A stretch of DNA of 30,612 bases from a virus (Duplodnaviria; Heunggongvirae; Uroviricota; Caudoviricetes): the IMG/VR virus record IMGVR_UViG_2859827302_000008; one strand, 5' to 3'. Positions 1 through 22,129 of this stretch are shown here, piece after piece. The notes beneath the pieces were generated by a model, which worked only from the letters and a program-made list of their open reading frames with translations, was not told the DNA's origin and did no database searches. The number at the start of each line of letters is the position of its first letter. Positions within the stretch are counted from its first letter, which is position 1. The position numbers were made by a program, and so were the translations under genes.

Positions 1-660
<660 letters not shown>

Positions 661-2823: not shown

Positions 2824-2915
2824 GTAAGCGTACAGCCTGAACCGTCTGGTCAGAATCTGACGAATTAGACAAAGTGGTGTCCACCAAATAAGTAGTGGGA
2901 ACCAAAGTGTCAGAT

Positions 2916-3296
2916 ATGCAGAAAAATGTGAATCCCGGCAGGCGAAAAGGCTGCCCTAATTATCCTCCCGAATTTAAACAGCAGCTCGTTGCTGCCTCCT
3001 GTGAACCCGGGATATCCATCTCAAAACTTGCTCTTGAAAATGGCATTAACGCCAATCTGTTGTTCAAATGGCGACAACAATGGCGCGAGGGAAAGCTGCT
3101 ATTACCTTCTTCAGAGAGCCCCCAGCTACTTCCTGTGACTCTCGATGCAGCTGCCGAACAGCCAGAATCGCTCGCAGAGGATCCGGAAACCCTCAGTATC
3201 AGCTGTGAGGTAACGTTCCGGCACGGGACGCTCCGCTTCAATGGCAATGTCAGCGAAAAGCTCCTGACTCTGCTGATACAGGAACTGAAGCGATGA
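2916..3296 (+). CDS. tnpA: IS66-family accessory protein TnpA
   Basis: First ORF inside the IS; start taken as ATG 2916 (ORF track uses GTG 2895). Stop overlaps the tnpB start (ATGA). Confidence 0.65.
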   Translation: MQKNVNPGRRKGCPNYPPEFKQQLVAASCEPGISISKLALENGINANLLFKWRQQWREGKLLLPSSESPQLLPVTLDAAAEQPESLAEDPETLSISCEVTFRHGTLRFNGNVSEKLLTLLIQELKR

Positions 3297-3640
3297 TCCC
3301 GTTACCTTCCGGGACCAAAATTTGGCTGGTTGCCGGTATCACCGATATGAGAAATGGCTTCAACGGCCTGGCGGCAAAGGTGCAGACGACGCTGAAAGAC
3401 GATCCGATGTCAGGTCACGTTTTTATCTTCCGTGGGCGTTATGGCAGTCAGGTAAAGCTCCTCTGGTCTACCGGCGATGGACTGTGTCTGCTGACCAAAC
3501 GGCTGGAGCGCGGCCGCTTCGCCTGGCCGTCAGCCCGGGATGGCAAAGTGTTCCTCACACCGGCACAGCTGGCGATGCTCCTTGAAGGTATCGACTGGCG
3601 GCAGCCTAAAAGACTGCTTACGTCCCTGACTATGTTGTAA
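3293..3640 (+). CDS. tnpB: IS66-family Orf2 (TnpB)
   Basis: 115-aa ORF in the conserved middle position of IS66 elements, translationally coupled to tnpA. Confidence 0.7.
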   Translation: MIPLPSGTKIWLVAGITDMRNGFNGLAAKVQTTLKDDPMSGHVFIFRGRYGSQVKLLWSTGDGLCLLTKRLERGRFAWPSARDGKVFLTPAQLAMLLEGIDWRQPKRLLTSLTML

Positions 3641-3688
3641 GCCTCTTTATCCTGGTCGACGCTGAATGAGCCTGGTAATATACCCGGT

Positions 3689-5227
3689 ATGAGCAGCTCA
3701 CTTCCTGACGATATCAATGCACTGAAACGTCTCCTTGCCGAACAGGAGGCGCTGAACCGTGCCCTGCTGGAAAAGCTGAACGAGCGTGAACGCGAAATAG
3801 ACCATCTGCAGGCACAGCTGGATAAGCTGCGCCGGATGAACTTCGGCAGCCGCTCCGAAAAAGTCTCCCGTCGTATCGCACAGATGGAAGCTGACCTGAA
3901 GGCACTTCAGAAAGAAAGTGATACCCTTACCGGTCGGGTTGACGACCCGGCCGTGCAGCGCCCGCTGCGTCAAACCCGCACCCGCAAACCGTTCCCCGAA
4001 TCACTCCCCCGCGATGAAAAACGGCTGCTGCCGGCAGCGTCATGCTGCCCGGAATGTGGAGGCTCACTGAGCTATCCGGGTGAGGATGCCGCCGAACAGC
4101 TGGAGTTGATGCGCAGCGTCTTCCGGGTTATCCGGACTGTACGTGAAAAGCATGCCTGTACTCAGTGCGATGCCATCGTGCAGGCCCCCGCGCCTTCACG
4201 GCCCATCGAGCGGGGTATCGCAGGACCGGGGCTGCTGGCCCGCGTGCTGATCTCAAAGTATGCAGAGCACACCCCGCTGTACCGCCAGTCTGAAATGTAC
4301 GGCCGCCAGGGCGTGGAGCTGAGTCGTTCACTGCTGTCGGGCTGGGTGGATGCATGCTGCCGGCTACTGTCACCGCTGGAAGAAGCGCTTCAGGATTATG
4401 TGCTGACTGACGGTAAGCTCCATGCTGATGACACGCCTGTCCCGGTGCTGTTGCCAGGCAATAAGAAAACGAAGACCGGGCGGTTATGGACCTACGTTCG
4501 TGACGACCGTAACGCCGGGTCAACGCTGGCGCCGGCGGTGTGGTTCGCTTACAGCCCGGACAGAAAAGGCATCCATCCGCAGACCCATCTTGCGGGGTTC
4601 AGTGGTGTACTGCAGGCGGATGCATACGCCGGGTTCAACGAGCTGTACCGGGATGGCCGGATAACGGAAGCCGCCTGTTGGGCTCACGCCCGCCGTAAAA
4701 TCCACGATGTGCACGTTCGCACCCCGTCAGCCCTGACGGAGGAAGCGCTGAAACGGATCGGCGAACTGTACGCCATCGAGGCAGAGATAAGGGGAATGAC
4801 GGCGGAGCAGCGCCTTGCCGAACGTCAGTTGAAAACGAAACCGCTGCTGAAATCCCTGGAAAGCTGGCTGCGTGAAAAGATGAAAACCCTGTCGCGACAC
4901 TCAGAACTGGCGAAAGCGTTCGCATACGCCCTGAACCAGTGGCCGGCGCTGACGTACTATGCAGATGATGGCTGGGCTGAGGCGGACAATAACATCGCTG
5001 AAAATGCGTTGCGGATGGTCAGTCTGGGCCGCAAAAACTACCTGTTCTTCGGTTCGGATCATGGAGGAGAGCGGGGAGCGCTGCTGTACAGCCTGATCGG
5101 GACGTGCAAACTGAACGGAGTGGAGCCAGAAAGCTACCTCCGCTATGTCCTTGACGTCATAGCCGACTGGCCGATAAACCGGGTCGGCGAACTGCTCCCC
5201 TGGCGCGTAGCACTGCCGACTGAATAA
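3689..5227 (+). CDS. tnpC: IS66-family transposase TnpC
   Basis: 512-aa ORF with N-terminal coiled-coil, CxxC…CxxC zinc-finger-like motif (CCPECGG…CTQCD) and DDE-type core, ending just inside the right inverted repeat. Confidence 0.85.
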
Positions 5228-5264
5228 CACATCCCCGTCAATACGGTTCTTGCTGCACGCTTAC

Positions 5265-5272
5265 CATTGACG
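5265..5272. repeat. Target-site duplication CATTGACG, right copy
   Basis: Exact copy of 2816..2823 immediately after the IS right end. Confidence 0.8.
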
Positions 5273-6162
5273 GGCGTGGTCTGGCTGGCGAGATCAGCAA
5301 GGAAACGGGTAAATCCCTGCGTGATAACGCTGAATACGTTAATCCCTGGGCGTCTCTGCATCGTGTTCAGCAATTCCGCTTCTTTGGTATTCCAGGGCGT
5401 CAGGCTTACCGTGAACTGCGGTTGTTGGCTGGTCAGGCGGCAAGGCAGCAGGGTGACAAAAAAGCAGGTGCGCCGGTACTGGATAACCCGCGCCTTGATG
5501 CCATCCTGGCTGCTGCTGATGCTGGCTGTTTTGCCACCTACATTATGAGGCAGGGCGGCGTGCTGGTTCCTCGCAAATATCACTTGATCAGAACCGCTTA
5601 TGAAATCAATGAAGAGCCGACCGCCTATGGCGATCACGGTATTCGTATTTATGGCATCTGGTCACCCATTGCAGAAGGCAAGATCTGCACTCATGCAGTG
5701 AAGTGGAAAATGGTTCGTAAAGCCGTTGACGTTCAGGAGGCGGCAGCCGACCAGGGCGCTTGCGCCCCTTGGACTCGTGGCAATAACTGTCCCCTTGCTG
5801 AAAATTTGAACCAACAGGAGAAAGATAAATCAGCTGATGGGAACCCCAGAACGGACATTACCAGCATGGATGACAAGGAGTTGCACGATTACCTGCACAG
5901 TATGAGCAAAAAAGAGCGCCGGGAACTGGCAGCAAGGTTACGCCTGGTGAAACCGAAACGGCGTAAAGACTACAAACAGCGAATTACAGACCATCAGCGA
6001 CTGCAGCTCGTGTATGAGCTGAAGTCCAGAGGATTTGATGGCAGCGAGAAAGAGGTCGATTTACTCCTTCGCGGAGGCAGTATTCCGTCAGGAGCAGGCC
6101 TGCGTATCTTCTATCGGAACCAGCGTTTGCAGGAAGATGATCAGTGGCGGAACCTATATTAA
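5273..6162 (+). pseudogene. A: P2-type replication initiation gene A, 3' part
   Basis: Joining 2823 to 5273 restores a continuous frame (…KNIDG|[25 protein letters not shown]…); downstream ORF to 6162 continues gpA-like sequence. Confidence 0.8.
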
Positions 6163-6908: not shown

Positions 6909-6969
6909 GTAGATCATGCAGGTGCATGAAAACCACTACATAAAGCGGGCAGGCGTGGCGGGGATACGA

Positions 6970-6997
6970 TTGCGCGCTAGGTATAAGTGTGTAAAAT
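6970..6997 (+). promoter_or_regulatory. Possible sigma70 promoter of the ATPase/HNH operon (-35 TTGCGC, -10 TAAAAT, 16-bp spacer)
   Basis: Hexamers read by eye about 45 bp upstream of ATG 7040; not supported by any other evidence. Confidence 0.25.
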
Positions 6998-7039
6998 AAT
7001 TCCAAAATAAATCATCACTAATGAAGTGAGAGGGTAATA

Positions 7040-8689
7040 ATGTTAGTCAAGAAAAATAAAAATTATAGTTTATATTTTTTAATTACAAATAATCAACAGA
7101 TATCTGATTCTGGTAATTATATAAAAATAGTCCCATCAAGAAGCGATTGGAATGATTTTGGATATTTGAGTAGAGTCGAAATATCTATTTTTAATAAAAA
7201 AGAGTGTAAGGATATAATTTCACTGAATGGTTATATTGGTTTTTTGAATTCAGAGGAGGAACGAAATGGAAAAGCAGAACTGATAAGGCGAGTGAAAAAA
7301 AAGGAAGAATCTAATTTAAAGGATGAGGGGTTTAATGATTATTTTGTCATGCTTCAGGATATGAATAATTATCGAAGACTAGTAAGATTTTTTGGGGTGA
7401 ATGAATCCAAATATATATTAAATTTCATTAATGATGTTGTTTCTAAGAAAAGTGACGCTAGTGCAGAGAATTTGAGGAAAAAAGCAATCTCTTCTGATAT
7501 CTTTAATAAATCTTTCATTAGAGAGTCTGAGTCGTATTTTACTTTCAAAAATGCAGGAACAGTTCTTTCCGGTATTCAATATGAGGAGTTGGGTAATTTA
7601 TCACAGCACATCAAGATTAGCTATTCGAATAAAGTTAATGAAGAAGATGTATCTTATGTTTTTAATTTTGATCACGAGCATGATTTACCAAAAAGAATTT
7701 CCATAATTATAGGCGAGAATGGTGTAGGAAAAAGCCAAACGCTTAGAGAAATCGCATTGGCTGCGATTAAAGGAAAGGATAATTTGGTGGCTGTAGTTGA
7801 TTCTAACGGTGTGAGCATTGAAGAACGAATTCAAATTAGTAGGCTCATTGCTTTTTCTCCAACAAATGAAAGTAAGTGTTCATTTCCAACCGATAAAAGA
7901 ATAAAATCATTGATATGGTACAAAAGATTGACTTTAAATCGTGAATCAAAATCCAAATTAAACTTGAATGATTTAATAGTGCAACTAGCGAGGAGTAACG
8001 ACGCTATCGGCTATAATCAAAGGTGGAATATATTTGTTGATGCACTGAGTGTTCTAAATAGTAACAACGATTTAGTAATCAAATGTGGCGGTGAAAATTC
8101 ACCATTTGTTAAATTAAATGAGCTTAATTCTCGAGGCGAAGAATCTAGACTATCATTATATTCTGAAATTATTCTCTCTGGCGAGCCTTTGAGGCTTATT
8201 GAAAATAAATGTTACCCTTTGAGTAGTGGGGAAATATCGTTTATTAAGTTTTGTGTACAAGTCTGTTTGTATATTGAGAATGGGACTCTTCTATTAATAG
8301 ATGAGCCAGAAACACATCTCCATCCTTCATTTATTAATAAATTTATGGCATTGCTTGATAATTTATTAGAAAAGACAGGCTCTTCAGCTATCATAGCAAC
8401 GCATTCGGTTTATCTTGTTCGGGAGGTTTTTAAGGAGCAAGTGACAATACTCAGAAGACGAGATGATGGGGTAATTGTTAGCGAAAAACCGAGATTGAGT
8501 ACTTTTGGGGCGAATATAGGAAATATCTCATATTTTGTTTTCGGTGAGAGTGAACCAACTCAAATTTTAAATAAAGTAAAAAACAATATAATTGCAAAGA
8601 ATATGTCTTGGGATGATGTTGAATCTAAATATAGCGAGGACTTATCACTTAATGTATTAACTGCGTTGAGAAATGAAATGGGCAATTGA
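7040..8689 (+). CDS. ABC-type (AAA_15/AAA_21-like) ATPase with unassigned ~220-aa N-terminal domain; candidate defence ATPase (PtuA-like)
   Basis: 549-aa ORF with GAGAGGG ribosome-binding site. Walker A GENGVGKS (aa ~225-232), signature-like LSSGE (~395), Walker B LLLIDEPE (~417-424), H-loop ATHS (~453). Gene is strongly AT-rich. Confidence 0.85.
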   Translation: MLVKKNKNYSLYFLITNNQQISDSGNYIKIVPSRSDWNDFGYLSRVEISIFNKKECKDIISLNGYIGFLNSEEERNGKAELIRRVKKKEESNLKDEGFNDYFVMLQDMNNYRRLVRFFGVNESKYILNFINDVVSKKSDASAENLRKKAISSDIFNKSFIRESESYFTFKNAGTVLSGIQYEELGNLSQHIKISYSNKVNEEDVSYVFNFDHEHDLPKRISIIIGENGVGKSQTLREIALAAIKGKDNLVAVVDSNGVSIEERIQISRLIAFSPTNESKCSFPTDKRIKSLIWYKRLTLNRESKSKLNLNDLIVQLARSNDAIGYNQRWNIFVDALSVLNSNNDLVIKCGGENSPFVKLNELNSRGEESRLSLYSEIILSGEPLRLIENKCYPLSSGEISFIKFCVQVCLYIENGTLLLIDEPETHLHPSFINKFMALLDNLLEKTGSSAIIATHSVYLVREVFKEQVTILRRRDDGVIVSEKPRLSTFGANIGNISYFVFGESEPTQILNKVKNNIIAKNMSWDDVESKYSEDLSLNVLTALRNEMGN

Positions 8690-9554
8690 AATGAATAAAT
8701 TAAAAAGACCTGTTTTTAAAGATTATTCTGCATTTAAAAAACTATCTGCAAATAAGAGATTAAAACATCATTCTGTTCTGAATGGACAGGATACATTTAT
8801 ACTTAATGCATATAGATCGTACATAAAGAATAAAGGGTATCTTAATGTCAATTCTTGTGGCGTATTGAGTAACAATATTGCTGAAGCTTTGAGATATTAT
8901 TATAACAATCCCGCAAAGTGTTTATCTATAATTGATGATATAAGAGCAGCTAATTCTAACTCTCTATGTCCAATGTGTGGTTCAATGCATAGCGGGACTT
9001 TGGATCATGTTTTACCCAAGGAAAACTATCCAGAATTTTCTTTATTCACTAAGAATTTGGTTCCTGCTTGCAAATGTAATACTTTCAAAAGTACTACTAT
9101 AGCTAATTCTGCAGGCCATCGGATGCTGCATCCATATTTTGATAATATATTAAAACAAAGATTAATATGTGCTAATTTTTCTAAATTAGGGCGAACACCT
9201 ACAATTGATGTAAAAATCATAATTGACCCAATGTCACCAGAATATAACAATGTTAAGTATCATCTTGATAATGTTGTTATCAAGAATAATATTAAGGGGT
9301 ATTTGTCTGAACAATGGGAGTCGTTTTACTTATATCCTGAGCTTGTTATTAGAGGACTGAATAAGAGTCTTTCTACTTATAGCGATGTATATGAGTTGTT
9401 GACTCGCGAGTTGTTGCTGTTGGATGAAAAACATAAAGGTAAAAATAATTGGAATTCGGTTTTTGTAGCTGGGTTAATTCGACCTGATGTGATTAGGTGG
9501 ATACTCTGTGAATTACATTTAGGTAACAGAAGTCCAGACGGTCGTCTCATATGA
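8673..9554 (+). CDS. HNH-family nuclease (His-Me finger with Cys4 zinc site); candidate defence effector (PtuB-like)
   Basis: 293-aa ORF overlapping the ATPase stop by 17 nt (alternative start ATG 8691 directly after the stop). Motif CPMCGS…GTLDHVLPKEN…NLVPACKCN…H matches the CxxC…DH…N…CxCN HNH layout. Confidence 0.8.
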   Translation: MKWAIEMNKLKRPVFKDYSAFKKLSANKRLKHHSVLNGQDTFILNAYRSYIKNKGYLNVNSCGVLSNNIAEALRYYYNNPAKCLSIIDDIRAANSNSLCPMCGSMHSGTLDHVLPKENYPEFSLFTKNLVPACKCNTFKSTTIANSAGHRMLHPYFDNILKQRLICANFSKLGRTPTIDVKIIIDPMSPEYNNVKYHLDNVVIKNNIKGYLSEQWESFYLYPELVIRGLNKSLSTYSDVYELLTRELLLLDEKHKGKNNWNSVFVAGLIRPDVIRWILCELHLGNRSPDGRLI

Positions 9555-9564
9555 TTTTTTGCAT

Positions 9565-9590
9565 CTTCAGCGTGTATCTGCACGCTGAAG
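9565..9590. other. Perfect 10-bp inverted repeat (stem-loop) between convergent HNH gene and portal gene
   Basis: CTTCAGCGTG-tatctg-CACGCTGAAG. A T-run precedes it on the plus strand, but no U-tract follows it on either strand, so it is not a canonical terminator. Confidence 0.4.
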
Positions 9591-9661
9591 AAATTCATAA
9601 AAACTGCTGCCTATTAATAAAATTTTTTAGCTGAGTTAAAGAACCTCATTTAGTGATTACG

Positions 9662-10696
9662 TTAAGTAGCTAGTTTATAACTATCAAATTTAACAATGTT
9701 CTCACTTACCAATTTATTTATTTCCATCATTCTTTTTTGTAACGGTATTAACTCGTTACGTACAAACACCAGGCTCGCCTTCTCCACATCCCCAAACCCC
9801 CCGACATTATTAGGCATAATCCCCATCATTTGCGGTGGCACACGATGCGCCGCCATCATGTCATCCCGGCTCACGTTCTTGATGTTCAGAAACTCATCCT
9901 TCGCCGCGACTTCTGACAACGGGATGATCTGAAGCCCGTCCTTTTTGCCGTTAGGCGAGTACATAAACAGATTGCGGAAGTTACCTGGTCCTTTGGCGCT
10001 TTTCATCGCATTGCGGAGGTTGTTCACATCCTCCTGGTTTTGCGCGGCATCGGTCATGTACATGATGAAGCCTGCATGACTGCCGTTAATGTAATACTAT
10101 CGGCGGAACAGCGTGGCGGACTCGTTGAGCAGGGCTGACGGAATGGCAGAAAGGTAACCTGGCAGGCCGTAGATCTCTTGGTTGATGTCCGGTTCCATCA
10201 GATGAAAGATGCTTCCTTTCGTGAACTGATACGGCTGCGTGGTCATGCCGTATTGCACAAACCAGTAGGTATCCAGGTCTAATCCGCGTCGGGTGTATTT
10301 TGCCAGAGCAGGCTCAAGAGCGATGACCTCTCCGAACCGGTTTGTGCGTTTCTCCAGGTAAGCGTTACCAAATACCAGATAATCCTGCACAAAACGTGAA
10401 AAAGCCTGCTGGCTGAGCAGCGGGTGAGGGATGTAGGTACTGATCAGAATGTTGCATTTCACCGCAATTGGTGAACTGTGATGCACGGCGGCGCGGAAGG
10501 TGCGCGCCAGTCCGTCAAAACTCACTGGCGGCTCATACCAGCGATCTGTCTGTACGCATTCCACATAGTCCAGTAGTTCACGGCGGTCCAGAACCGGAAC
10601 GGGATCGCCGAAGCTGAATGCTTCGGCTGAAGTCTGGTTTTTATGCTGGGTCTGTTTCGTCGCCGCAGCGCGGTTCTTCTTACTCTTTCCCATCAA
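9662..10696 (-). pseudogene. Q: P2-type portal protein gene Q with one in-frame amber codon (TAG at 10097..10099)
   Basis: Two minus-strand ORFs (10097..10696 and 9662..10063) share one frame and are separated only by the TAG plus 11 sense codons. Combined length (~344 codons) fits a P2-type portal. Confidence 0.85.
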
Positions 10697-12459
10697 AAAA
10701 TCTCCACAATATTGCTGGTATTGGCGGACTCGCCCTGCAGCGGTTCGTTAAACAGTGCGTGCATTGTTGCCCAGGCCAGATCGGCATGGCTGGCTTCTTC
10801 GCTGCGGCTGGCTTCATAGGTCGGGCGGTTGCCGCTGGCGGTGGTGGCGCGACGGATTGCCATGAATGACTGCGCAATGTCGGTGTGCCCGGCGTCAAAC
10901 TCAAGACGGCGGTGGCTGATAATGTCGTAGGCCTTGAGTACCAGGGCGTTTTTAACGTTGGGGTTGTAGACAAACTCCCGGACGGCAGGAAAAAACGCTT
11001 TCACGTTCTCGTAAACCCCGTGACCAACGCCGGTTGAGTCGATGCCGATATAGGTCACGTTGTACTGTTCAGTCAGTTTTTTGATGGCGTAAGCCTGGGC
11101 GCGAAAGTCCATTCCGCGCCACTGGTGACGCTCAAGAATGCGGAACTTACCGCCTGGCACGGCTGGCGGTGCCACCACCACGCATCCGGCGCTGTCGCCG
11201 TTCTGCGTACCTTTTGCCGGGTCATAACCGATCCACACTTCGCGCCAGCCAAACGGGCGCAGGGCCAGTGCATGAAAGTCGGTCCAGACTTCCCAGCTGT
11301 CCACCATGCACGCCTGCAATTCGCTGAGCGGGAACACGGACGCGAGATCGTCCACGAACTCGCACATCAGCAGGTTCTGGTATTCGTCAGGGCTGTACTC
11401 CATGCGCAACTGGTCAAGGTCGAACAGGTTACAGGCGCCGCGCACCGCATCTTCCACGGTGACTATCTGGCGGTATTGCCCGTCTGCGCACAGCAGGCCG
11501 GGGGCCAGATTGCTGTGGGACAGGTCGATGTCCACCTTGTCAGCTTTGTTGCGCCCACGGTTGAACAGCGCACCGGACCAGAACGGATAAGCACTGTGGG
11601 TCAGACTGGATGGTGTGGAAAAATAGGTCTGCCGCCATTTCTTGTGAATAGCCATACCAGAAGCCACTTTGCGTAGCTCCTGAAATTTCGGTATCCAGAA
11701 ATATTCATCCAGATACAGGTTACCGTGATAACTCTGGGCAGTGCGGGCATTGGTGCCGAGGAAATACAGTGTGGCCCCGTTGGGAAGCACCATCGGATCG
11801 CCTTTCAGCTCCACCTCCACTTCTTTGGCAAAGTCGATGATGTACTGTTTGAAGACGTGGGCCTGTGCCTTACTGGCAGAAAGGAAAATCTGGTTACGTC
11901 CGGTAAGCAGGGCGTCAATCAGGGCTTCACGGGCAAAATAGAAGGTCGCGCCGATCTGGCGTGACTTCAGCAGGTTGCGGATGCGGTTGGTTTTTCCGGC
12001 TTCCCACCAGTGGCGCTGGTAGTTGAACATGGAGGAATGGAAATTTTTTTCCAGCTTCTCAATCTGGTCATCGGTGAAAACATTCTTTTCAGGCTGACGG
12101 CGTGGGCCTTTGTTGCGGTTGGCGACGTTAGGGTTTAAGTCGGCTTCGTTGCCGCCATTGTTAAACTTGCCGATCCGCGCGTGGCGCTCAGACTGGCGCG
12201 CCAGCAGGTCAATATCTTTGAAATCTTTCCCTTCTTTGTGCTCCTTCATGATGAGCTGGCAGTAGCGTGCGGCGGTGGTGAGCTGCATCTGATCCAGAGG
12301 CCCATAGTCACCCCACTTGTCGCGTTTTTTTCAGCTGTAAACGGTTGCAACTTTCTCGCCCAGCATTTCAGCAATGCGGGCTACGCGGTATCCCTGAAAG
12401 TACAGCAGCATGGCCTGCCGACGGGGATCGAGATCTGCGGGTGTCAGTGTGGTGTTCAT
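10693..12459 (-). pseudogene. P: P2-type terminase large (ATPase) subunit gene P with in-frame opal codon (TGA at 12331..12333)
   Basis: ATG at 12459 opens MNTTLTPADLDPRRQAMLLYFQGYRVARIAEMLGEKVATVYS, then TGA, then the same frame continues into the 531-aa ORF 10693..12288. Confidence 0.85.
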
Positions 12460-12505
12460 GGCACAAACCTACAGCCTTGAATGAAGGCTTTCCCCGCCTG
12501 CGGTT

Positions 12506-12523
12506 TGTGTGGTTGTCGGTACA
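12506..12523. promoter_or_regulatory. Ogr/Delta-type late-promoter dyad TGT-N12-ACA between divergent P and O
   Basis: TGTgtggttgtcggtACA in the P-O intergenic region. P2 late promoters are known to carry a TGT-N12-ACA activator site (recalled). Confidence 0.4.
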
Positions 12524-12601
12524 AATACCGCGCATTGTTTCACTGCCCCTATCACCGCAACCATAAGGCTCCAGTAAGTTTTTTCTAACGGAGCACGGCT
12601 C

Positions 12602-13435
12602 ATGACAGTGAAAGCAAAGCGTTTTCGCATCGGGGTGGAAGGTGCCACCACCGACGGACGCGAAATCCAGCGTGAATGGCTGGAACAGATGGCAGCCAGC
12701 TATAACCCGGCGGTGTATACCGCGCTGATTAACCTTGAGCACATCAAGTCTTATCTGCCGGACAGCACCTTTAACCGCTACGGCAAGGTGACGGCGCTGT
12801 TTGCTGAAGAAATCACGGAAGGTCCGCTGGCAGGCAAGATGGCGCTGTATGCTGACGTTGAGCCAACGGAGTCCCTGGTGGAACTGGTGAAAAAAGGCCA
12901 GAAATTATTCACCTCTATGGAAGTCAGCCCGAAGTTCGCTGATACGGGCAAAGCCTACCTGGTCGGCCTGGCTGCCACTGATGACCCTGCCAGTCTGGGC
13001 ACTGAAATGCTGACATTCAGCGCCAGTGCAGCCCATAACCCGCTGGCAAACCGCAAGCAGAATCCCGCCAATCTCTTTACCGCCGCAGAGGAAACGGTGA
13101 TCGAACTGGAAGAAGTCCAGGACGACAAACCGTCCCTGTTTGCCCGCGTCACGGCGCTGTTTACCAAAAAAGAGCAGTCCGATGACGCCCGGTTCTCTGA
13201 TGTGCATAAGGCCGTGGAGCTGGTCGCCACTGAGCAGCAGAACCTGAGCGCACGCACCGAAAAATCCCTGTCTGAGCAGGAAGAACGCCTGTCTGAGCTG
13301 GAGACTGCCCTGCAGGCACAGCAAACCGCCTTTAACGAACTGGTGGACAAGCTGAGTCATGAAGACAGCCGCCAGGACTACCGCCAGCGTGCAACAGGCG
13401 GTAACGCCCCCGCTGACACTCTGACCAATTGCTGA
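12602..13435 (+). CDS. O: Capsid scaffolding protein (gpO-like)
   Basis: 277-aa ORF, first rightward late gene, acidic coiled-coil-rich translation; position and size match P2 gpO. Confidence 0.85.
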   Translation: MTVKAKRFRIGVEGATTDGREIQREWLEQMAASYNPAVYTALINLEHIKSYLPDSTFNRYGKVTALFAEEITEGPLAGKMALYADVEPTESLVELVKKGQKLFTSMEVSPKFADTGKAYLVGLAATDDPASLGTEMLTFSASAAHNPLANRKQNPANLFTAAEETVIELEEVQDDKPSLFARVTALFTKKEQSDDARFSDVHKAVELVATEQQNLSARTEKSLSEQEERLSELETALQAQQTAFNELVDKLSHEDSRQDYRQRATGGNAPADTLTNC

Positions 13436-13451
13436 TGGAGCACAAAACCTG

Positions 13452-14510
13452 ATGAAGAAGAATACCCGCTTTGCTTTTAACGCTTACCTGCAGCAACTGG
13501 CGCGTCTGAACGGTGTGGCAGTTGAAGAACTGTCCAGCAAGTTCACCGTAGAGCCGTCCGTGCAGCAGACGCTGGAAGACCAGATCCAGCAGTCCGCCGC
13601 TTTCCTGACTCTGATTAACGTCACGCCAGTGACTGAGCAGTCCGGTCAGCTGCTGGGGTTGGGAGTTGGCAGCACCATTGCCGGAACCACTGATACCACT
13701 GCGAAAGAGCGTGAACCTGTCGATCCGACGCTGATGGTCGATGTGGAATATAAATGCGAGCAGACCAACTTTGACACGGTGCTGACCTACGCGAAGCTGG
13801 ACCTGTGGGCGAAGTTTCAGGATTTTCAGGTGCGTATCCGTGACGCCATCGTGAAACGTCAGGCACTGGACCGCATCATGATCGGCTTTAATGGCGTGAA
13901 GCGTGCGAAAACCTCCAACCGTAGCGAAAACCCGCTGCTGCAGGATGTGAATAAAGGCTGGCTGCAGAAAATCCGTGAGGATGCACCGGATCACGTCATG
14001 GGCAGCACCACCACGGGCGGTGAAACCACACCGGGCGCAGTGAAAGTCGGGAAAGGTGGCGAATATGCCAACCTGGACGCCGTGGTGATGGATGCCGTCA
14101 ATGAGCTTATCGACGTGGTCTACCAGGACGATGACGATCTGGTGGTGATTTGCGGTCGTGAACTGCTGTCTGACAAGTATTTCCCGCTGGTCAACAAAGA
14201 GCAGGAAAACAGTGAAAAACTGGCTGCCGATATGATCATCAGTCAGAAACGCATGGGTGGCCTGCAGGCCGTGCGTGCGCCGTTCTTCCCGCCGAATGCG
14301 CTGCTGATCACCCGTCTGGATAACCTGTCCATCTACTGGCAGGAAGACACCCGCCGCCGTTCAGTTATCGACAACCCGAAACGTGACCGGATTGAAAACT
14401 TTGAATCCGTTAACGAAGCCTATGTGGTTGAGGACTACCGCTGCGCCGCACTGGTGGAAAACATCCAGATTAGTGATTTCAGCGCCGCCGCAGCCGAAAC
14501 CGGAGCGTAA
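13452..14510 (+). CDS. N: Major capsid protein (gpN-like)
   Basis: 352-aa ORF immediately after O; size and synteny match P2 gpN. Confidence 0.9.
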   Translation: MKKNTRFAFNAYLQQLARLNGVAVEELSSKFTVEPSVQQTLEDQIQQSAAFLTLINVTPVTEQSGQLLGLGVGSTIAGTTDTTAKEREPVDPTLMVDVEYKCEQTNFDTVLTYAKLDLWAKFQDFQVRIRDAIVKRQALDRIMIGFNGVKRAKTSNRSENPLLQDVNKGWLQKIREDAPDHVMGSTTTGGETTPGAVKVGKGGEYANLDAVVMDAVNELIDVVYQDDDDLVVICGRELLSDKYFPLVNKEQENSEKLAADMIISQKRMGGLQAVRAPFFPPNALLITRLDNLSIYWQEDTRRRSVIDNPKRDRIENFESVNEAYVVEDYRCAALVENIQISDFSAAAAETGA

Positions 14511-14513
14511 TCC

Positions 14514-15164
14514 ATGAGCCTGAGTCCCGCACGGCAGCATCGCCTGCGCGTTCAGGCTGAACAGGTCGCCCGTGAGGGTGGCAGTGTTCGCCACGCATCG
14601 GGCTATGACCTGATGCTGCTGCAACTGGCGGAAGACCGCCGCCGTCTCAAGGGCGTTCAGTCCACGGTCAAAAAAGCGGAAATCAAAGTGGAGCTGCTGC
14701 CGAAGTACGCCGCCTGGGCGGAGGGTGTCCTGGCTGCCGGAGGCGCTCAACAGGATGACGTGCTGATGTACGTGATGTTGTGGCGCATTGATGCCGGAGA
14801 TTATGCCGGGGCGCTGGAGATCTGGCGTCATGCCCTGCGTCATGGATGGGTGATGCCGCTGGGCAACCGCAACGTGCAGACCGTGCTGACAGAGGAAATG
14901 GCAGATGCAGCGCAGAGCGCAATGCTTGCCGCCACCGGCTTTGATGCCGATCTGTTGCTGCAGACGCTGGAGCTGACAGACGGTCTGGATATGCCGGACC
15001 AGTCACGGGCACGTCTGCATAAAGCGATTGGCGCGGTCCTGAGTGAAAGCAATCCGGCTTCCGCCCTTAATCATCTCAACCATGCGTTACAGCTCGATCC
15101 CCGCTGTGGCGTGAAAAAAGACAAACAGCAGCTGGAGCGCAGACTGCGCAATGACAGCCGCTGA
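14514..15164 (+). CDS. M: Terminase small (endonuclease) subunit (gpM-like)
   Basis: 216-aa ORF after N; synteny and similarity to P2 gpM. Confidence 0.8.
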   Translation: MSLSPARQHRLRVQAEQVAREGGSVRHASGYDLMLLQLAEDRRRLKGVQSTVKKAEIKVELLPKYAAWAEGVLAAGGAQQDDVLMYVMLWRIDAGDYAGALEIWRHALRHGWVMPLGNRNVQTVLTEEMADAAQSAMLAATGFDADLLLQTLELTDGLDMPDQSRARLHKAIGAVLSESNPASALNHLNHALQLDPRCGVKKDKQQLERRLRNDSR

Positions 15165-15259
15165 CAGAACGTGCCCCCGCGCACGGGCGGCACGGGGTGG
15201 CGAAAGGCACAGCCACATCAAAACCCCGTCCACCGCCCTTTATTTCAGGAGAAAGCAGC

Positions 15260-15706
15260 ATGAAGTTTGTTGCGCCAGAACAGGCACCGGAACAGGCGGA
15301 AATCATTAGAAATACGCCGTTCTGGCCTGATGTGGACCTGTCGGAGTTTCGCAGTGTCATGCGCACTGACGGCACGGTGACGCAGCCGCGTTTAAAGTAG
15401 GTTGCACTGTCGGCAATTTCGGAGGTTAACGCAGAGCTGTATGAGTTTCGCAGACGCCAGCAGATGCTGGGGTATGCGTCGGAACAGCTGGACGGGAAAA
15501 GTGAGCGCATTCAGCACTATTTCAACGCGGTTTACTGCTGGGCTCGCGCCATGCTCAACGAACGTTTCCAGGACTATGACGCCACGGCATCCGGTGCGAA
15601 GCGGGGCGAAGAACTGGCGGAAGCAAGCGGTGATTTGTGGCGTGACGCCCGCTGGGCCATCAGCCGGGTGCAGGACGCGCCGCACTGCACAGTGGAGCTT
15701 ATCTGA
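15260..15706 (+). pseudogene. L: Head completion protein gene L with in-frame amber codon (TAG at 15398..15400)
   Basis: ATG 15260 with AGGAG ribosome-binding site. Translation …NTPFWPDVDLSEFRSVMRTDGTVTQPRLK-stop-VALSAISEVNAELYEF… continues in the same frame to 15706 and resembles P2 gpL on both sides of the stop. Confidence 0.8.
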
Positions 15707-15909
15707 TGAAAGTGCGTGCGCATCAGTATGACACGGTGGACGCGCTTTGCTGGCGTCATTACGGGCGCACGCAGGGTGTCACGGAGCAGGTACTGAAGGC
15801 AAATCCGGGGCTTGCCGAATACGGCCCCTTTGTACCTCACGGGCTGCAGGTGGAGCTGCCGGACATTCCGACCACCACCACCGTGCAGACCGTCCAGCTA
15901 TGGGACTGA
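15706..15909 (+). CDS. X: Tail protein X (gpX-like)
   Basis: 67-aa ORF whose start overlaps the L stop (ATGA); size and position match P2 gpX. Confidence 0.75.
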   Translation: MKVRAHQYDTVDALCWRHYGRTQGVTEQVLKANPGLAEYGPFVPHGLQVELPDIPTTTTVQTVQLWD

Positions 15910-15912
15910 ATT

Positions 15913-16128
15913 ATGACGCTTGAGCGAATCAGCGCCTTTATCACGTATTGCATCGCCGTCGTGCTGGCCTGGCTGGGCGATTTGTCCATCAAGGATGCCT
16001 CAACGCTGGGCGGCCTGATGATTGGTGTGCTGATGCTGGCTATCAACTGGTACTACAAACACAAAGCCTACCAGCTTCTGCGCGACGGGCAGATCTCGCG
16101 GGAGGACTATGAATCCATCAATCGTTAA
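15913..16128 (+). CDS. Y: Holin, small two-TMD type (pinholin-like)
   Basis: 71-aa ORF with two hydrophobic segments and a charged C-terminus, immediately upstream of the endolysin. Confidence 0.65.
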   Translation: MTLERISAFITYCIAVVLAWLGDLSIKDASTLGGLMIGVLMLAINWYYKHKAYQLLRDGQISREDYESINR

Positions 16129-16621
16129 ACGCTGCCTTGTCGGGGCCGTGCTGGCTATTGCTGCCACGCTGCCGGGTTTTCAGCAGCTTCACACCTCCGT
16201 GGAGGGACTGAAACTGATTGCCGATTACGAAGGTTGTCGTCTGCAGCCGTATCAGTGCAGCGCGGGTGTCTGGACCGACGGTATTGGTAATACGTCGGGC
16301 GTCATTCCTGGCAAAACCATTACGGAGCGACAGGCAGCAGAAGGGCTGATCTCCAACGTGCTGCGTGTGGAGCGGGCGCTGGAAAGGTGTGTGAAGCAAC
16401 AGCCGCCGCAGAAGGTGTATGACGCTGCGGTGTCGTTTGCCTTCAACGTGGGTACGGGCAATGCCTGCAGTTCCACGCTGGTGAAATTGCTCAATCAGCG
16501 GCGCTGGGCGGATGCGTGCCGACAGTTGCCGCGCTGGGTTTATGTGAAAGGTGTTTTTAATCAGGGGCTGGATAACCGCCGTGCGCGGGAGATGGCCTGG
16601 TGTTTACAGGGAGCAAACTGA
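16109..16621 (+). CDS. K: Endolysin, T4-lysozyme-like muramidase with N-terminal signal-anchor-release (SAR)-like segment
   Basis: Translation has the E…D…T catalytic arrangement (…DYEGCRLQPYQCSAGVWTDGIGNT…), closely resembling the P1 Lyz-type SAR endolysin as recalled. N-terminal weakly hydrophobic stretch CLVGAVLAIAATLPGF. Confidence 0.85.
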   Translation: MNPSIVKRCLVGAVLAIAATLPGFQQLHTSVEGLKLIADYEGCRLQPYQCSAGVWTDGIGNTSGVIPGKTITERQAAEGLISNVLRVERALERCVKQQPPQKVYDAAVSFAFNVGTGNACSSTLVKLLNQRRWADACRQLPRWVYVKGVFNQGLDNRRAREMAWCLQGAN

Positions 16622-16622
16622 A

Positions 16623-17000
16623 ATGAAAAAGAAATTAATCAGCGGGCTGTTTCTGATGTTATGGATGGCGCTGTTAATCGCAGCAATAGTGTATCCGCAG
16701 GGGATTTTTCCGGTACTGGCAGCGTCCGGCGTTTGGGTAGCCTGTTTACTGACATGGGCGGTAATTCCGGTAGCACTGGCTTCGTTAATTAAGAATGGCC
16801 CGCTCTGGCAGGAGTTGAGGGCATCTTTACTGAAGACAATTACCCGAAAAGAAAACGTATTTATCAGCTGGGTGATACGATTGCTGATTGTCGTCAGTCT
16901 CGCCTGGACGGGGTGGGCCATTACCCTGGTCTTTTATCTGCTGACCGTTATTGCCTTCTGGATCACCCGTAATCAGATGGCGCAACAGGTAGCCGCATGA
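16623..17000 (+). CDS. lysA: LysA-like lysis-timing membrane protein
   Basis: 125-aa ORF from ATG 16623 with about four hydrophobic helices, in the lysis cassette. Confidence 0.6.
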   Translation: MKKKLISGLFLMLWMALLIAAIVYPQGIFPVLAASGVWVACLLTWAVIPVALASLIKNGPLWQELRASLLKTITRKENVFISWVIRLLIVVSLAWTGWAITLVFYLLTVIAFWITRNQMAQQVAA

Positions 17001-17425
17001 ACCGGTTGCTGCTGGTTGTGCTGGCGTTATTATTGGCGGCGCTGGGCTGGCAGACGTGGCGGCTGGCTGATGCCAGCCAGACCATCAGCACGCAGGCAGA
17101 CGAGCTGCAGAGCAAAAGCCAGGCACTGGCAAAGAGCAACAGCCAGCTTATCAGCCTGTCCATTCTGACTGAAACCAATAACCGGGAGCAGGCGCGGCTC
17201 TATGCCGAAGCAGAACAGACCAGTGTACTGCTGAGACAACGACAACGCCGGATTGAGGAACTGAAACGTGAGAACGAGGATTTACGTCGCTGGGCTGATA
17301 CTCCTTTGCCTGCTGACATTATCCGGCTGCGGGAACGTCCGGCACTCACCGGAGGTGCAGCTTACCGTCAGTGGTTGTCCGCGAGTGACGCCGTGTCGGC
17401 TGGAGCAGGCAGCGCCGCGCACTAA
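16997..17425 (+). CDS. lysB: LysB, Rz-like inner-membrane spanin
   Basis: 142-aa ORF with N-terminal TMD and coiled-coil-rich periplasmic part. Confidence 0.7.
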   Translation: MNRLLLVVLALLLAALGWQTWRLADASQTISTQADELQSKSQALAKSNSQLISLSILTETNNREQARLYAEAEQTSVLLRQRQRRIEELKRENEDLRRWADTPLPADIIRLRERPALTGGAAYRQWLSASDAVSAGAGSAAH

Positions 17426-17558
17426 CGGTGATCTGAATGCGTTGCTGGATGAAACGGAGGCCGCCTGGGCGGTCTGTGCAGACAAAGTGGACATGATTAT
17501 TGCGTGTCAGGAGCGAAATAGTGAACAAACCACAATCCCTGCGCCACGCCCTCAATAA
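17268..17558 (+). CDS. lysC: LysC, Rz1-like outer-membrane lipoprotein spanin (overlapping lysB in another frame)
   Basis: Signal peptide with lipobox LTLSGC, proline-rich mature part, overlapping the 3' end of lysB. Confidence 0.6.
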   Translation: MRTRIYVAGLILLCLLTLSGCGNVRHSPEVQLTVSGCPRVTPCRLEQAAPRTNGDLNALLDETEAAWAVCADKVDMIIACQERNSEQTTIPAPRPQ

Positions 17559-17952
17559 AGCAGTGCCTTATGTCCGTAATAACCCGGACAAACTGCATCT
17601 GTTTGTGGATAACGGTTCGCTGGTTGCCTCCGGGGCTAGCTCCATGTCATGGGAGTACCGCTACACCCTGAACGTGGTGATTGAAGATTTCAGCGGCGAC
17701 CAGAATCTGCTGATGGCCCCGGTTTTGCTGTGGCTGCGGGATAACCAGCCCGATGCGATCAATAACCCGGCGTTACGGGAAAAGCTATTCACCTTTGAGG
17801 TGGATATTCTGCGCAACGATGTCTGTGATATCAGCCTTAACCTGCAACTGACGGAGCGTGTGCTGGTCAGCACTGACGGCAGTGTGTCGAACGTTGAAGC
17901 GGTAGCGGAACCTGATGAACCTGAAGAAATGTGGACGGTGAAACGTGGCTGA
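17500..17952 (+). CDS. R: Tail completion protein R
   Basis: 150-aa ORF; size, position and similarity match P2 gpR. Confidence 0.75.
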   Translation: MRVRSEIVNKPQSLRHALNKAVPYVRNNPDKLHLFVDNGSLVASGASSMSWEYRYTLNVVIEDFSGDQNLLMAPVLLWLRDNQPDAINNPALREKLFTFEVDILRNDVCDISLNLQLTERVLVSTDGSVSNVEAVAEPDEPEEMWTVKRG

Positions 17953-18346
17953 ATTGCAGAAGGTGGACGACTGGCTGAGTGCATTATTGGCGAATCTGGA
18001 GCCAGCCGCAAGAAGCCGCATGATGCGCCAGCTGGCGCAGGAACTGCGCCGGACACAGCAGCAGAACATCAGGATGCAGCGCAATCCAGATGGCAGCAGT
18101 TATGAGCCGCGCAGGGTAACAGCACGCAGCAAAAAGGGGCGCATCAAACGTCAGATGTTTACAAAGCTGCGCACCACAAAATACCTGAAAACTGCAGCCA
18201 GCGCCGATTCTGCCAGCGTACAGTTTGAAGGTAGGGTGCAGCGCATTGCCCGTATTCACCATTACGGCTTGAGTGATCGCGTCAGTCGAAAAGGTATTTA
18301 TACCATCTATGCGAAAAGGCAGTTATTAGGTTTTAATGTCCGGTAA
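17945..18346 (+). pseudogene. S: Tail completion protein gene S, 3' end replaced by the IS1 terminus
   Basis: GTG-initiated ORF. The last codons and the stop (TAA 18344..18346) lie at the junction with and inside the IS1 inverted repeat that starts at 18342. Confidence 0.7.
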
Positions 18347-18396
18347 TGCTGCCAACTTACTGATTTAGTGTATGATGGTGATTTTAAGGTGCTTGC

Positions 18397-18672
18397 GTGG
18401 CTTCCATTTCCATCAGATGTCCTTCCTGCTCCGCTATTGAAGGCGTGGTGCGTAACGGCAAAAGCACTGCCGGACATCAGCGCTATCTCTGCTCTCATTG
18501 CCGTAAAACATGGCAATTACAGTTCACTTACACCGCCTCTCAGCCCGGTACGCACCAGAAAATCATTGATATGGCCATGAATGGCGTCGGATGTCGCGCC
18601 AGTGCACGCATTATGGGCGTTGGCCTCAACACGGTTTTACGTCACTTAAAAAACTCAGGCCGCAGTCGGTAA
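18397..18672 (+). CDS. insA: IS1 InsA
   Basis: 91-aa [26 protein letters not shown]… with zinc-finger and HTH regions, characteristic of IS1 InsA. Confidence 0.9.
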
Positions 18673-19094
18673 CCTCGCGCATACAACCGGGCAGTGATGT
18701 GATTGTCTGCGCTGAAATGGACGAACAGTGGGGCTACGTCGGTGCTAAATCACGTCAGCGCTGGCTGTTTTACGCGTATGACAGGATACGGAGGACGGTT
18801 GTGGCGCACGTCTTCGGTGAACGCACTCTGGCCACACTGGAGCGTCTTCTGAGCCTGCTGTCGGCCTTTGAGGTCGTGGTATGGATGACGGATGGCTGGC
18901 CGCTGTATGAATCACGCCTGAAGGGAAAGCTGCACGTTATCAGCAAGCGTTACACTCAGCGCATTGAGCGACATAATCTGAATCTGAGACAACATCTGGC
19001 AAGGCTGGGACGGAAGTCACTGTCGTTCTCAAAATCGGTGGAGCTGCATGACAAGGTCATCGGGCATTATCTGAACATAAAACACTATCAGTAA
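18591..19094 (+). CDS. insB: IS1 InsB reading frame (expressed as InsAB' transposase by -1 frameshift)
   Basis: 167-aa ORF overlapping insA in the -1 frame, ending 15 bp before the right inverted repeat. Confidence 0.85.
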
Positions 19095-19109
19095 GTTGGC
19101 AGCATTACC

Positions 19110-19624
19110 ATGCAGCCCTCACAATATAGTTAAAAGCGACATTTCGTGGGCGTGTTTCATTCGCACCTGCAGGTTTAGTCGTTGCCGCAACAACACCACC
19201 CTCTGTAATAGCCGGGTTGGGAATTGGGTAATTATCGAAGTCAATGGCCGGAGACAGGGGCGTGATTTGTTTTAAAATCGTGGTGCCTGTAAAACTTTCC
19301 AGAGTCTGGTCGTTAGTTCGTGAAGTCCAGATTCCCCAATAGTGGTTATGACTGACAATCGCACCGTCCTGAAGCGTTAATAATCCCCTTCCGTTATCCA
19401 CTCCACGTCCGTCATCCCAGCCACGAATAAACTCACCGCGTAAATCAGGCAATTTATTTGTCGGGTAAGCCTTTGCCAGTTCCGGGTATTCTTCAGCAGA
19501 AAAAGCCGCACCATTGCATTTCAGCCAGCCTGTCGGCGGAGTGGCTGAAGGCCACGGAACAGGCACACCAACAGGTAATGCAGAGCCTTCTCCCAAACCA
19601 ACGTTTAAGAAAATGCAGAGATAA
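19110..19624 (-). pseudogene. Orphan tail-fibre variable C-terminal segment (Sv'-type, inverted orientation), lacking its constant 5' partner
   Basis: Minus-strand translation …PVPWPSATPPTGWLKCNGAAFSAEEYPELAKAYP…ETRPRNVAFNYIVRAAW is typical of invertible-segment tail-fibre tips. The 5' end begins within the gix-like site and the 3' end abuts IS1, which supplies the stop codon. Confidence 0.65.
19599..19624. promoter_or_regulatory. gix/pix-like DNA-invertase crossover site
   Basis: TTCTCCCAAACCAACGTTTAAGAAAA versus recalled gix consensus TTATCCAAAACCTCGGTTTACAGGAA. It lies inside the tail-fibre reading frame, next to the invertase gene. Confidence 0.5.
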
Positions 19625-19668
19625 TGGCTAACTGGCATCATCTCCGGTTTTTATTCAGGGGATTGATC

Positions 19669-20235
19669 ATGCTTATTGGCTATGTACGCGTGTCAACAAA
19701 TGACCAGAACACCGATTTGCAACGTAATGCACTGAACTGCGCGGGATGTGAGCGGATTTTTGAGGATAAAATCAGTGGCACTAAGCCCGACAGACCGGGG
19801 CTTAAAAAACTGCTCAGGACACTATCGGCAGGAGACACGCTGGTTGTCTGGAAGCTGGACAGACTGGGACGCAGTATGCGGCATCTTGTTACGCTGATAG
19901 AAGAGTTGCGCCAGCGTGGTGTGAATTTCCGAAGCCTGACTGACAGTATTGATACCAGTACCCCAATGGGCCGTTTCTTTTTTCACGTCATGGGGGCTCT
20001 GGCTGAAATGGAACGTGAACTGATAGTTGAACGTACCAGAGCAGGGCTGGCTGCAGCTCGTGCCAAAGGCAGAGTAGGTGGACTCCGTCCTAAGTTGACC
20101 ACCGAACAGTGGGCACAGATTGGACGTTTACTCGAGGCCGGAGAATCAAGACAGCGTATTGCACTGATTTTTGATGTGGGCGTTTCTACCATTTATAGAA
20201 AATTTCCGGCGAATGAGAGCAATGAATCGCCCTGA
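19669..20235 (+). CDS. pin: Serine-recombinase DNA invertase (Pin/Gin/Hin/Cin family)
   Basis: Translation MLIGYVRVSTNDQNTDLQRNAL…VVWKLDRLGRSM…GALAEMERELI… carries the catalytic Ser in YVRVST and a C-terminal HTH. Start taken as ATG 19669. Confidence 0.9.
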   Translation: MLIGYVRVSTNDQNTDLQRNALNCAGCERIFEDKISGTKPDRPGLKKLLRTLSAGDTLVVWKLDRLGRSMRHLVTLIEELRQRGVNFRSLTDSIDTSTPMGRFFFHVMGALAEMERELIVERTRAGLAAARAKGRVGGLRPKLTTEQWAQIGRLLEAGESRQRIALIFDVGVSTIYRKFPANESNESP

Positions 20236-20283
20236 GTCAGTATTATTTTGATTTTTCCTGTAAGCGGACAAATACCGTCATTT

Positions 20284-20301
20284 TGTGTGAATAACGACAC
20301 A
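20284..20301. promoter_or_regulatory. Ogr/Delta-type late-promoter dyad TGT-N12-ACA upstream of FI
   Basis: TGTgtgaataacgacACA about 75 bp upstream of the FI start. Confidence 0.4.
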
Positions 20302-20377
20302 ACTGCGCTTAGCTGTTTGTCAGGCACAATCACTTCAACATAGGGCGAAGCCTAATCCAATCAGGAGGTTCGCCACT

Positions 20378-21550: not shown

Positions 21551-21559
21551 GGGGACAAC

Positions 21560-22075
21560 ATGGCTTTACCACGCAAATTAAAACACCTGAACCTGTTTAA
21601 CGACGGGAACAACTGGCAGGGGATCGTTGAGTCGCTGACGCTGCCGAAATTCACCCGCAAATATGAGAAGTATCGCGGCGGCGGTATGCCCGGAGCGGTG
21701 GATGTGGATCTGGGACTGGATGACAGTGCACTGGATACAGAATTTTCCATTGGTGGTACTGAACTGCTGCTGTTTAAGCAGATGGGCAAAGCCACGGTGG
21801 ATGGCATCCAGCTGCGCTTTACCGGCTCTATTCAGCGTGATGATACCGGGGAAGTGCAGGCCGTGGAGCTTGTGGTGCGTGGACGTCACAAAGAAGTAGA
21901 TTCCGGCGAGTGGAAGACGGGCGAAAGCAACACTACCAAAGTGACCAGTACCAACAGCTACGCGAAGCTGACCATCAATGGTGAGGTGCTCTATGAAGTG
22001 GACCTGATCAACATGGTGGAAATTGTGGACGGTGTGGACCTGATGGAAGCGCACCGCAACGCCCTCGGCCTCTGA
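21560..22075 (+). CDS. FII: Tail tube protein (gpFII-like)
   Basis: 171-aa ORF directly after FI; matches P2 FII. Confidence 0.9.
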   Translation: MALPRKLKHLNLFNDGNNWQGIVESLTLPKFTRKYEKYRGGGMPGAVDVDLGLDDSALDTEFSIGGTELLLFKQMGKATVDGIQLRFTGSIQRDDTGEVQAVELVVRGRHKEVDSGEWKTGESNTTKVTSTNSYAKLTINGEVLYEVDLINMVEIVDGVDLMEAHRNALGL

Positions 22076-22129
22076 TGTATCTGAACGGCGCGGAATGCCG
22101 CGCCAGAACCTAATTTACAGGACAACAAA

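Follow-up and report, generated by a model that had tools for sequence, protein, structure and literature searches.

The 3' end of portal gene Q is linked to the cargo of the cos-Q defense hotspot in P2-like phages

The gpA-gpQ region beside the cos site of P2-like phages is an established defense hotspot, and exchange of its content via the cos end and homologous recombination has already been suggested, speculatively (Rousset et al. 2022, PMC9122126). A survey published in NAR in 2026 found the linkage between defense genes and any core gene to be near zero (whole-gene Spearman 0.2 or less) and discussed homologous recombination through the flanking genes (PMC13586616). The locus described here is the same, with variable AT-rich cargo that is rapidly swapped between similar phages; however, Q is treated in both papers as a conserved flanking core gene, whereas here its last ~37 codons are cargo-linked. 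In a term search of PMC9122126 and PMC13586616, neither the portal C-terminus nor an intragenic boundary was found to be mentioned. The hotspot, the mosaic junction, and hitchhiking are thus known, while a systematic intragenic edge in an essential virion gene is undescribed in these two papers.

Phage P2 itself shares the gene order of the locus (Q and P leftward, O to ogr rightward), a homologous cos site, and a homologous portal including the pattern of its C-terminal tail. It differs in that its tin/old cargo is located on the other side of cos and its Q tail has a G+C content of 0.53; the distance between its cosL and Q stop is only 186 bp. A comparable situation is presented by gnd beside the O-antigen rfb cluster of Escherichia coli and Salmonella, a housekeeping gene that hitchhikes next to a polymorphic cluster. 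In both cases a conserved essential gene shows an excess of ancient, co-transferred diversity on the side facing the polymorphic locus, decaying with distance; in contrast to gnd/rfb, the edge described here is sharp and intragenic, it lies in a phage genome, and just one structural element of a virion protein is affected. Intragenic junctions between modules of different history are also a feature of lambdoid mosaicism in temperate phages. There, too, a conserved stretch of a coding sequence serves as the join and the protein keeps its function, whereas here more than 100 cassettes use one and the same junction, which is tied to a defense hotspot and cos.

The window analyzed here, i.e., the whole 30,612-nucleotide stretch of IMG/VR record IMGVR_UViG_2859827302_000008, contains a P2-like prophage (Peduoviridae, Elveevirus-like) whose closest phages are Elveevirus 4LV2017 and Cartapus. 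Its late region follows the P2 order, with Q and P on the minus strand and O, N, M, L, lysis, and tail genes on the plus strand, as judged from the ORF map, a 99.6-99.7% identical RefSeq prophage, and Pfam matches for gpR, gpS, the sheath, and gpD. The hotspot occupies its usual place: gene A ends at 6162 and is followed by cos (6951-6969), the cargo (6980-9661), and the Q stop at 9662. The prophage is a defective remnant. Q is not an intact ORF, as it contains a TAG at 10097-10099 (K200 to stop), which is common to IMG/VR contig L088 and absent in NZ_CP049845, where Q is intact; the gene for the terminase large subunit P (10693-12459, minus strand) contains a TGA at 12331-12333 (W43 to stop), seen only in the window. 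Because of these stops and the damage caused by insertion elements, the portal tail of the window should be regarded as a fossil of the arrival of a cassette, not as a working part of a virion. That Q of the window is a pseudogene is a caveat absent from the original prediction for this locus.

The cos cohesive end, GGCGTGGCGGGGATACGAT, was located at 6951-6969 (plus strand); it aligns with the P2 cosL junction and would form the left, Q-side terminus of the virion DNA. The flanking context is common to P2 (...AAGCGGGC / GGCG.GGCGGGGA...... / TGCGCGCT, the last element following the cohesive end in the window). An identical sequence is annotated as a putative cos at the left end of phage Cartapus, and the site is conserved in 96 loci with distinct tails. 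A search with the P2 cos consensus allowing at most 3 mismatches returned no match, the window site differing at no fewer than 4 positions, and the site was recognized by eye via its P2-like flanks. From its sequence, 6951-6969 is thus a predicted P2-type cos with 19-nt cohesive ends. The last conserved bases ahead of the variable cargo are those of the cos flank TGCGCGCTAG (6970-6979, plus strand). With cos in this position, the cargo is bounded by cosL on one side and by the 3' end of Q on the other.

Portal gene Q, on the minus strand, extends from 10696 to 9662 (stop TAA, 9662-9664), and its translation ends in ...VFVRNELIPLQKRMMEINKLVSENIVKFDSYKLAT, exactly as in the original prediction. 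According to the latter, the 3' end of Q is AT-rich like the cargo, which is borne out by a G+C content of 29% in the tail compared with 53% in the rest of Q and 32% in the cargo. The cargo boundary was also correctly placed inside Q, although not at the proposed position of 9765 (~30 codons), since the break is at ~9775 and the AT-rich segment covers the last 37 codons and the stop (9662-9775, minus strand, ..SLVFVRNELIPLQKRMMEINKLVSENIVKFDSYKLAT). More precisely, G+C equals 0.289 in this tail and 0.319 in the cargo (6980-9661); 114-nt windows within the Q body (9776-10696, minus strand, Pfam Phage_portal) have a mean of 0.530, a standard deviation of 0.030, and a minimum of 0.465. A sliding profile shows a sharp fall at the end of Q, from ~0.55 to ~0.25 at about 9765-9775, and 60-nt windows range from 0.53-0.57 at 9750-9870 to 0.22-0.28 at 9660-9764. 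None of the ~17,500 114-nt windows across the late genes (9776-27400) is as AT-rich as the tail (minimum 0.325). The AT-richness at the end of Q is genuine and far exceeds what chance would produce.

Alignment with portals of other P2-like phages placed the collapse of identity at about 9775, inside Q. The closest Q bodies associated with other cargo are 94% identical to the window up to 9776, and identity collapses abruptly at 9776-9770, a few codons ahead of the conserved FVRNELxPLQKR motif; the maximum-likelihood change point of the window lies 7 nt before the F codon of FVRNEL. Change points of 44 of the 52 distinct cassettes fall between -24 and +17 nt from this codon (9766-9768), while in a few cassettes the break is located 37-220 nt further upstream. 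The motif itself (FVRNELIPLQKR, 9733-9768, minus strand) belongs to the tail: its amino acids are conserved, but its codons are of AT type and its synonymous sites differ between cassettes. In the motif block, the third-position pairwise identity drops from ~0.75 to 0.34-0.48, whereas positions 1 and 2 remain at 0.96. On the cos side, column conservation falls from at least 0.9 to ~0.3 at 9-10 nt past the cohesive end (96 loci with distinct tails), and more than 1200 E. coli records match the window from 6800 to about 6985 and then stop. The breaks at ~9775 and 10 nt past the cohesive end therefore delimit a variable module of about 6980-9775. The intragenic boundary is not peculiar to one event but a regular feature of the hotspot.

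Rather than foreign sequence, the replaced piece is a homologous portal end. The tail aligns without gaps with the C-terminus of P2 gpQ (VFVRNELIPLQDRIREINGWLGQEVIRFKNYSLDTDND), and the E-I-N ... F..Y.L pattern is kept; the homology pattern shared with P2 gpQ can be written as E-[LI]-N-x-W-[LI]...[IV]-[IV]-x-F-x-x-Y-x-L. As the cryo-EM model of the P2 virion covers gpQ residues 27-340 (bioRxiv 10.64898/2026.09.14.750843), the tail segment is an ordered one. In AF2 predictions, residues 304-330 form a confident helix, after which a short non-helical stretch ends the protein; the model built with a shallow alignment (pLDDT 44) was unusable, and in that of a second run only the wing and the last helix can be relied on. 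Q matches PF04860 (E=7.5e-17), and the AF2 model of its close homologue P0122 (pTM 0.60) matches the HK97 portal (8cez_A, E=3.6e-10) as well as the GTA portal (6toa/6tba), so that Q has the portal family sequence and a predicted HK97-type fold. A sequence search of the Q protein against PDB returned no match.

One residue of the window tail is unusual: codon 9712-9714 (within EINKLVS) encodes Leu at a position where Trp (W329) is found in 56 of 56 aligned portals. The cassette of Scandinavium (L011) keeps the Trp, and other alleles have F, Y, or R. A protein search with the 61-aa C-terminus of Q retrieved short portal fragments only. Databases contain many portal C-terminal fragments of 59-106 aa with diverse tails, a number of which begin with MMAAHRVPPQ... 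and some of which come from contigs of Mb size. As in the window, these fragments may stem from portals truncated in decayed prophages, and they could mark orphaned cassettes.

The relationship between tail and cargo was analyzed in 160 loci with relatives of the window portal, of which species-representative genomes and IMG/VR each contributed 80; the set is biased towards the closest relatives of the window Q, so that other Peduoviridae clades may differ. Past FVRNELxPLQKR the tail is hypervariable, with 106 distinct versions in 138 loci whose Q bodies are 80-95% identical. As expected for a hotspot, the 122 cargo-bearing loci combine variable cargo of 525-3506 nt with Q bodies that are 88-95% identical. 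Unrelated cargo is accompanied by a different tail in 7329 of the 7381 pairs of these loci, and both are shared in 49. The same cargo with a different tail occurs in a single pair, the cargo in question being an 80%-identical homologue; different cargo with the same tail was found in two pairs, which actually represent one diverged cargo. Linkage of tail and cargo is thus essentially complete, the three exceptions being diverged versions of one cassette. The window cassette behaves accordingly: its HNH gene is present in six IMG/VR loci, all of which have the window tail (one with an E-to-D change). Compared with Scandinavium lactucae (L011), which has the same type of cassette, the window is 84% identical in the body, 76% in the tail, and 79% in the cargo. 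Compared with E. coli and Klebsiella phages with other cargo, the body is 92-94% identical but the tail only 65-67%, and body and tail therefore have discordant histories.

Tail and cargo also share composition. Tail G+C correlates with G+C in the 1.5 kb that follow Q (r=0.80, p=8e-32; r=0.78 for distinct tails only) and with G+C of the cargo itself, taken between the Q stop and cos (r=0.75). The correlation of GC3 of Q with cargo G+C amounts to between -0.08 and 0.22 upstream, 0.38 in the FVRNEL motif block, and 0.63 in the next block. Where no cargo is present between Q and cos (n=9, including P2), the mean tail G+C is 0.54, compared with 0.34 in loci with cargo (p=1.4e-6); cargo-less portals with equally AT-rich ends, which would have spoken against the original prediction, were not seen, all nine being GC-normal. 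Amino-acid identity of the tails rises with that of the cargo proteins, from 0.52 for unrelated cargo to 0.63 (60-80% identical), 0.70 (80-95%), and 0.95 (at least 95%), while cargo proteins that are 20-60% identical are associated with a tail identity of 0.51-0.55, no higher than for unrelated ones.

The tail alleles are old. Between cassettes on close phages, pS reaches 0.80-0.90 in the tail (0.90 in the motif), as opposed to 0.29 in the body of Q. For comparisons within a cassette lineage, dN/dS equals 0.11 in the variable tail, 0.015 in the motif, and 0.067 in the body. Saturated synonymous sites combined with low dN/dS indicate that the alleles are functionally constrained and not decaying. 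Pairwise identity decreases towards the tail, from 0.96-0.97 in P to 0.94 in the middle of Q and then to 0.93 and 0.90 within the last 300 nt of the body; such a gentle rise in diversity is expected beside a long-maintained polymorphism broken down by recombination. The segment thus resembles a linked, hitchhiking haplotype in its co-inheritance with the cargo, its greater age than the surroundings, and the decay of diversity with distance.

Cassette exchange with a boundary inside Q, the tail being an old haplotype locked to its cargo, is the probable origin of this arrangement. The unit that differs between related phages comprises the cargo genes and the end of Q (about 6980 to about 9775), each cassette carrying its own last ~37 portal codons, i.e., most of the final long helix and a short C-terminal segment. 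The swapping of cassettes among P2-like genomes would involve homologous recombination. One crossover would fall within the conserved Q body or upstream of it; the other junction, at cos, would arise either from a second crossover, the cos region being conserved as well, or from identical cohesive ends annealing to each other. Between cassettes, the tails would be too diverged for recombination, leaving each of them locked to its own cargo. The tail has co-diverged with the cargo, and in this model it would have done so over a time span much greater than the age of the surrounding, often homogenized Q body, as a hitchhiking or linked-haplotype effect around a polymorphic defense locus. The AT-richness of the tail is proposed to reflect the common history of tail and AT-rich cassette, not a lack of constraint on the portal end; the shared G+C may originate from phages of hosts with other G+C contents or from AT drift in a segment that is never homologously exchanged. 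That the exchange took place in the lineage of the window is suggested by the population patterns. The earlier claim that the recombination delivering the cargo replaced the portal C-terminus gains support from the break, the linkage, and the GC-normal tails of cargo-less phages.

Some observations are less easily accommodated by cassette exchange. The Leu-for-Trp substitution counts against it, as the tail allele of the window is only putatively functional, and the location of tail and Q body on the same mRNA counts against the explanation of the shared G+C. No donor genome was found for the window cassette, nor a recombination partner identical on one side of the junction. A tblastn search of the tail against 50,697 phage records gave best identities of 60-63% and no donor, and an IMG/VR search with the HNH protein retrieved the same cassette only, plus one 53% relative that does not adjoin a portal. 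PHL101 and K139, P2-like phages of low G+C, lack cargo beyond Q, and their tails are only slightly shifted towards AT; no low-G+C P2-like donor with the window tail was found. Two other routes were considered and rejected: Chi-guided RecBCD recombination from the cos end, there being no GCTGGTGG in the phage part, and integron-like or site-specific insertion, because no recombinase is encoded by the cargo.

Linkage alone fits passive hitchhiking and functional co-adaptation alike. In the latter case, the portal tail would be a working part of the cassette, and selection, not just missing homology, would hold the two together; the tail might, e.g., stop the phage's own portal from triggering the cargo, or its DNA might serve as a cis signal for the convergent cargo operon. 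In a supergene-like variant, the terminal helix of the portal would be co-adapted so that the resident portal or packaging is not sensed or blocked by its own cassette. Co-adaptation agrees with the complete linkage, with purifying selection on each tail allele (dN/dS 0.11), and with the tail being an ordered part of the portal. However, the same behavior is observed with very different cargo (retron, Septu-like, and DUF4145), cargo proteins that are still 20-60% identical do not bring their tails (0.51-0.55) closer than unrelated ones (0.52), and promoter or terminator signals in the tail DNA or its neighborhood do not exceed the shuffled background. Co-adaptation in general is considered unlikely, and the supergene-like variant improbable to a similar degree. 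The tail could also be under diversifying selection of its own, e.g., for escape from portal-sensing defenses or satellite interference, its association with the cargo being incidental to proximity. Portal proteins are known triggers of some defense systems, and more than 100 tail alleles are found on nearly identical Q bodies. This reading is nevertheless very unlikely: the saturated divergence of synonymous sites and of the invariant motif points to age and not to fast adaptive change, dN/dS within lineages is well below 1, and tracking of the cargo G+C is not predicted by it.

The remaining two explanations dispense with co-transfer. A weakly constrained C-terminus could have drifted in situ to A+T by mutation bias, independently of the cargo. 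The tail is indeed the most variable part of Q, and AT-rich tails use K/N/I-rich residues, as if composition shaped the protein; however, tails of cargo-less phages are GC-normal, tail G+C follows that of each individual cargo, tail and cargo are linked and co-diverging, and the break is abrupt and reaches the synonymous sites of a strictly conserved motif. As the tail dN/dS of 0.11 also shows that constraint is not relaxed, in-situ decay is already largely refuted, and its probability is considered very small. Finally, Q might truly end earlier, the AT-rich part representing chance read-through into the cargo or an extension by gene calling. Nothing but the change in composition speaks for such an artefact, whose probability is practically negligible. 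The tail has the same length and conserved residues as that of P2 gpQ, which is resolved up to residue 340 in the virion; the ORF is annotated in RefSeq as a 343-aa portal; and the tail pattern recurs in more than 100 alleles. The homology to P2 gpQ refutes this explanation.

The hotspot can thus be redrawn at base-pair resolution as a module whose limits lie 10 nt from the cohesive end and within an essential structural gene. The intragenic edge supports exchange via homology in Q and the cos region. As the linked part comprises only ~37 codons, whole-gene analyses show no linkage of defense and core genes. P4 satellites do not have Q, which is consistent with their rare trading of cassettes with P2. 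The portal tail could be used as a short natural barcode of the cassette lineage, suitable for typing cassettes, detecting exchanges, and recognizing orphaned cassettes of decayed prophages. It also illustrates the tolerance of a virion protein, as an ordered portal element accepts more than 100 deeply diverged versions.

The cargo of the window is present in only 3 of 5426 complete E. coli genomes; the same place is occupied by a retron in 4LV2017 and by a DUF4145 gene in Cartapus. It consists of two ORFs on the plus strand, both intact in the window. Gene A (7040-8689, 549 aa) encodes an ATPase with Pfam matches to AAA_21 and AAA_15 and PADLOC matches to PDC-M01A (E=3e-55) and PtuA (E=1e-31); it is annotated as 'AAA family ATPase' in the RefSeq prophage that is 99.7% identical. 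Gene B (8673-9554 as the longest ORF, 293 aa; start at 8691 in RefSeq) is annotated as 'HNH endonuclease' and matches PDC-M01B (E=1e-33). It has no match in Pfam, and its best 25 listed matches are all PDC-M01B models, PtuB being absent among these. The pair is a candidate anti-phage system of the Septu-like ATPase/HNH type (PADLOC PDC-M01). Both Septu (PtuA/PtuB) and PDC-M01 are, like the window cargo, two-gene operons of an AAA_15/21 ATPase followed by an HNH nuclease, although the best matches of the cargo are to the PDC-M01 models rather than to PtuA/PtuB. A 53%-identical relative of the HNH protein is encoded by L173 (IMGVR_UViG_642555150_000002), a 56-kb viral contig. As no P2-type portal motif is located within +/-5 kb of it, the cargo family also occurs outside the hotspot. 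An inverted repeat with a perfect 10-bp stem and a 6-nt loop (9565-9590) is located between the convergent cargo operon and Q; a T-run is absent on both strands, and a terminator scan makes no call there.

Insertion elements are found at several places in the prophage. A complete IS66-family element (2825-5264, with an HTH_Tnp_1 ORF, TnpB_IS66, and DDE_Tnp_IS66) lies within replication gene A and divides it into two halves (1299-2824 and 5265-6162). An IS3-family (rve) transposase ORF at the beginning of the window (1-659) adjoins a truncated Dam methylase gene (697-1302), and homology to the intact prophage begins only at 660. In the region 18347-20377, an IS1 transposase (18591-19094) takes the place of the baseplate and tail-fiber genes V-H; between S and the sheath gene FI, only a tail-collar fragment (19105-19641, minus strand) and a Cin/Hin-type invertase (19624-20235) are left. 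The host flank of the window (27760-30092) contains a ybjL-type Asp-Al_Ex/TrkA_C permease gene (minus strand) and ybjM, while ybjJ and rcdA flank the other (integrase) end of the near-identical prophage in NZ_CP049845.
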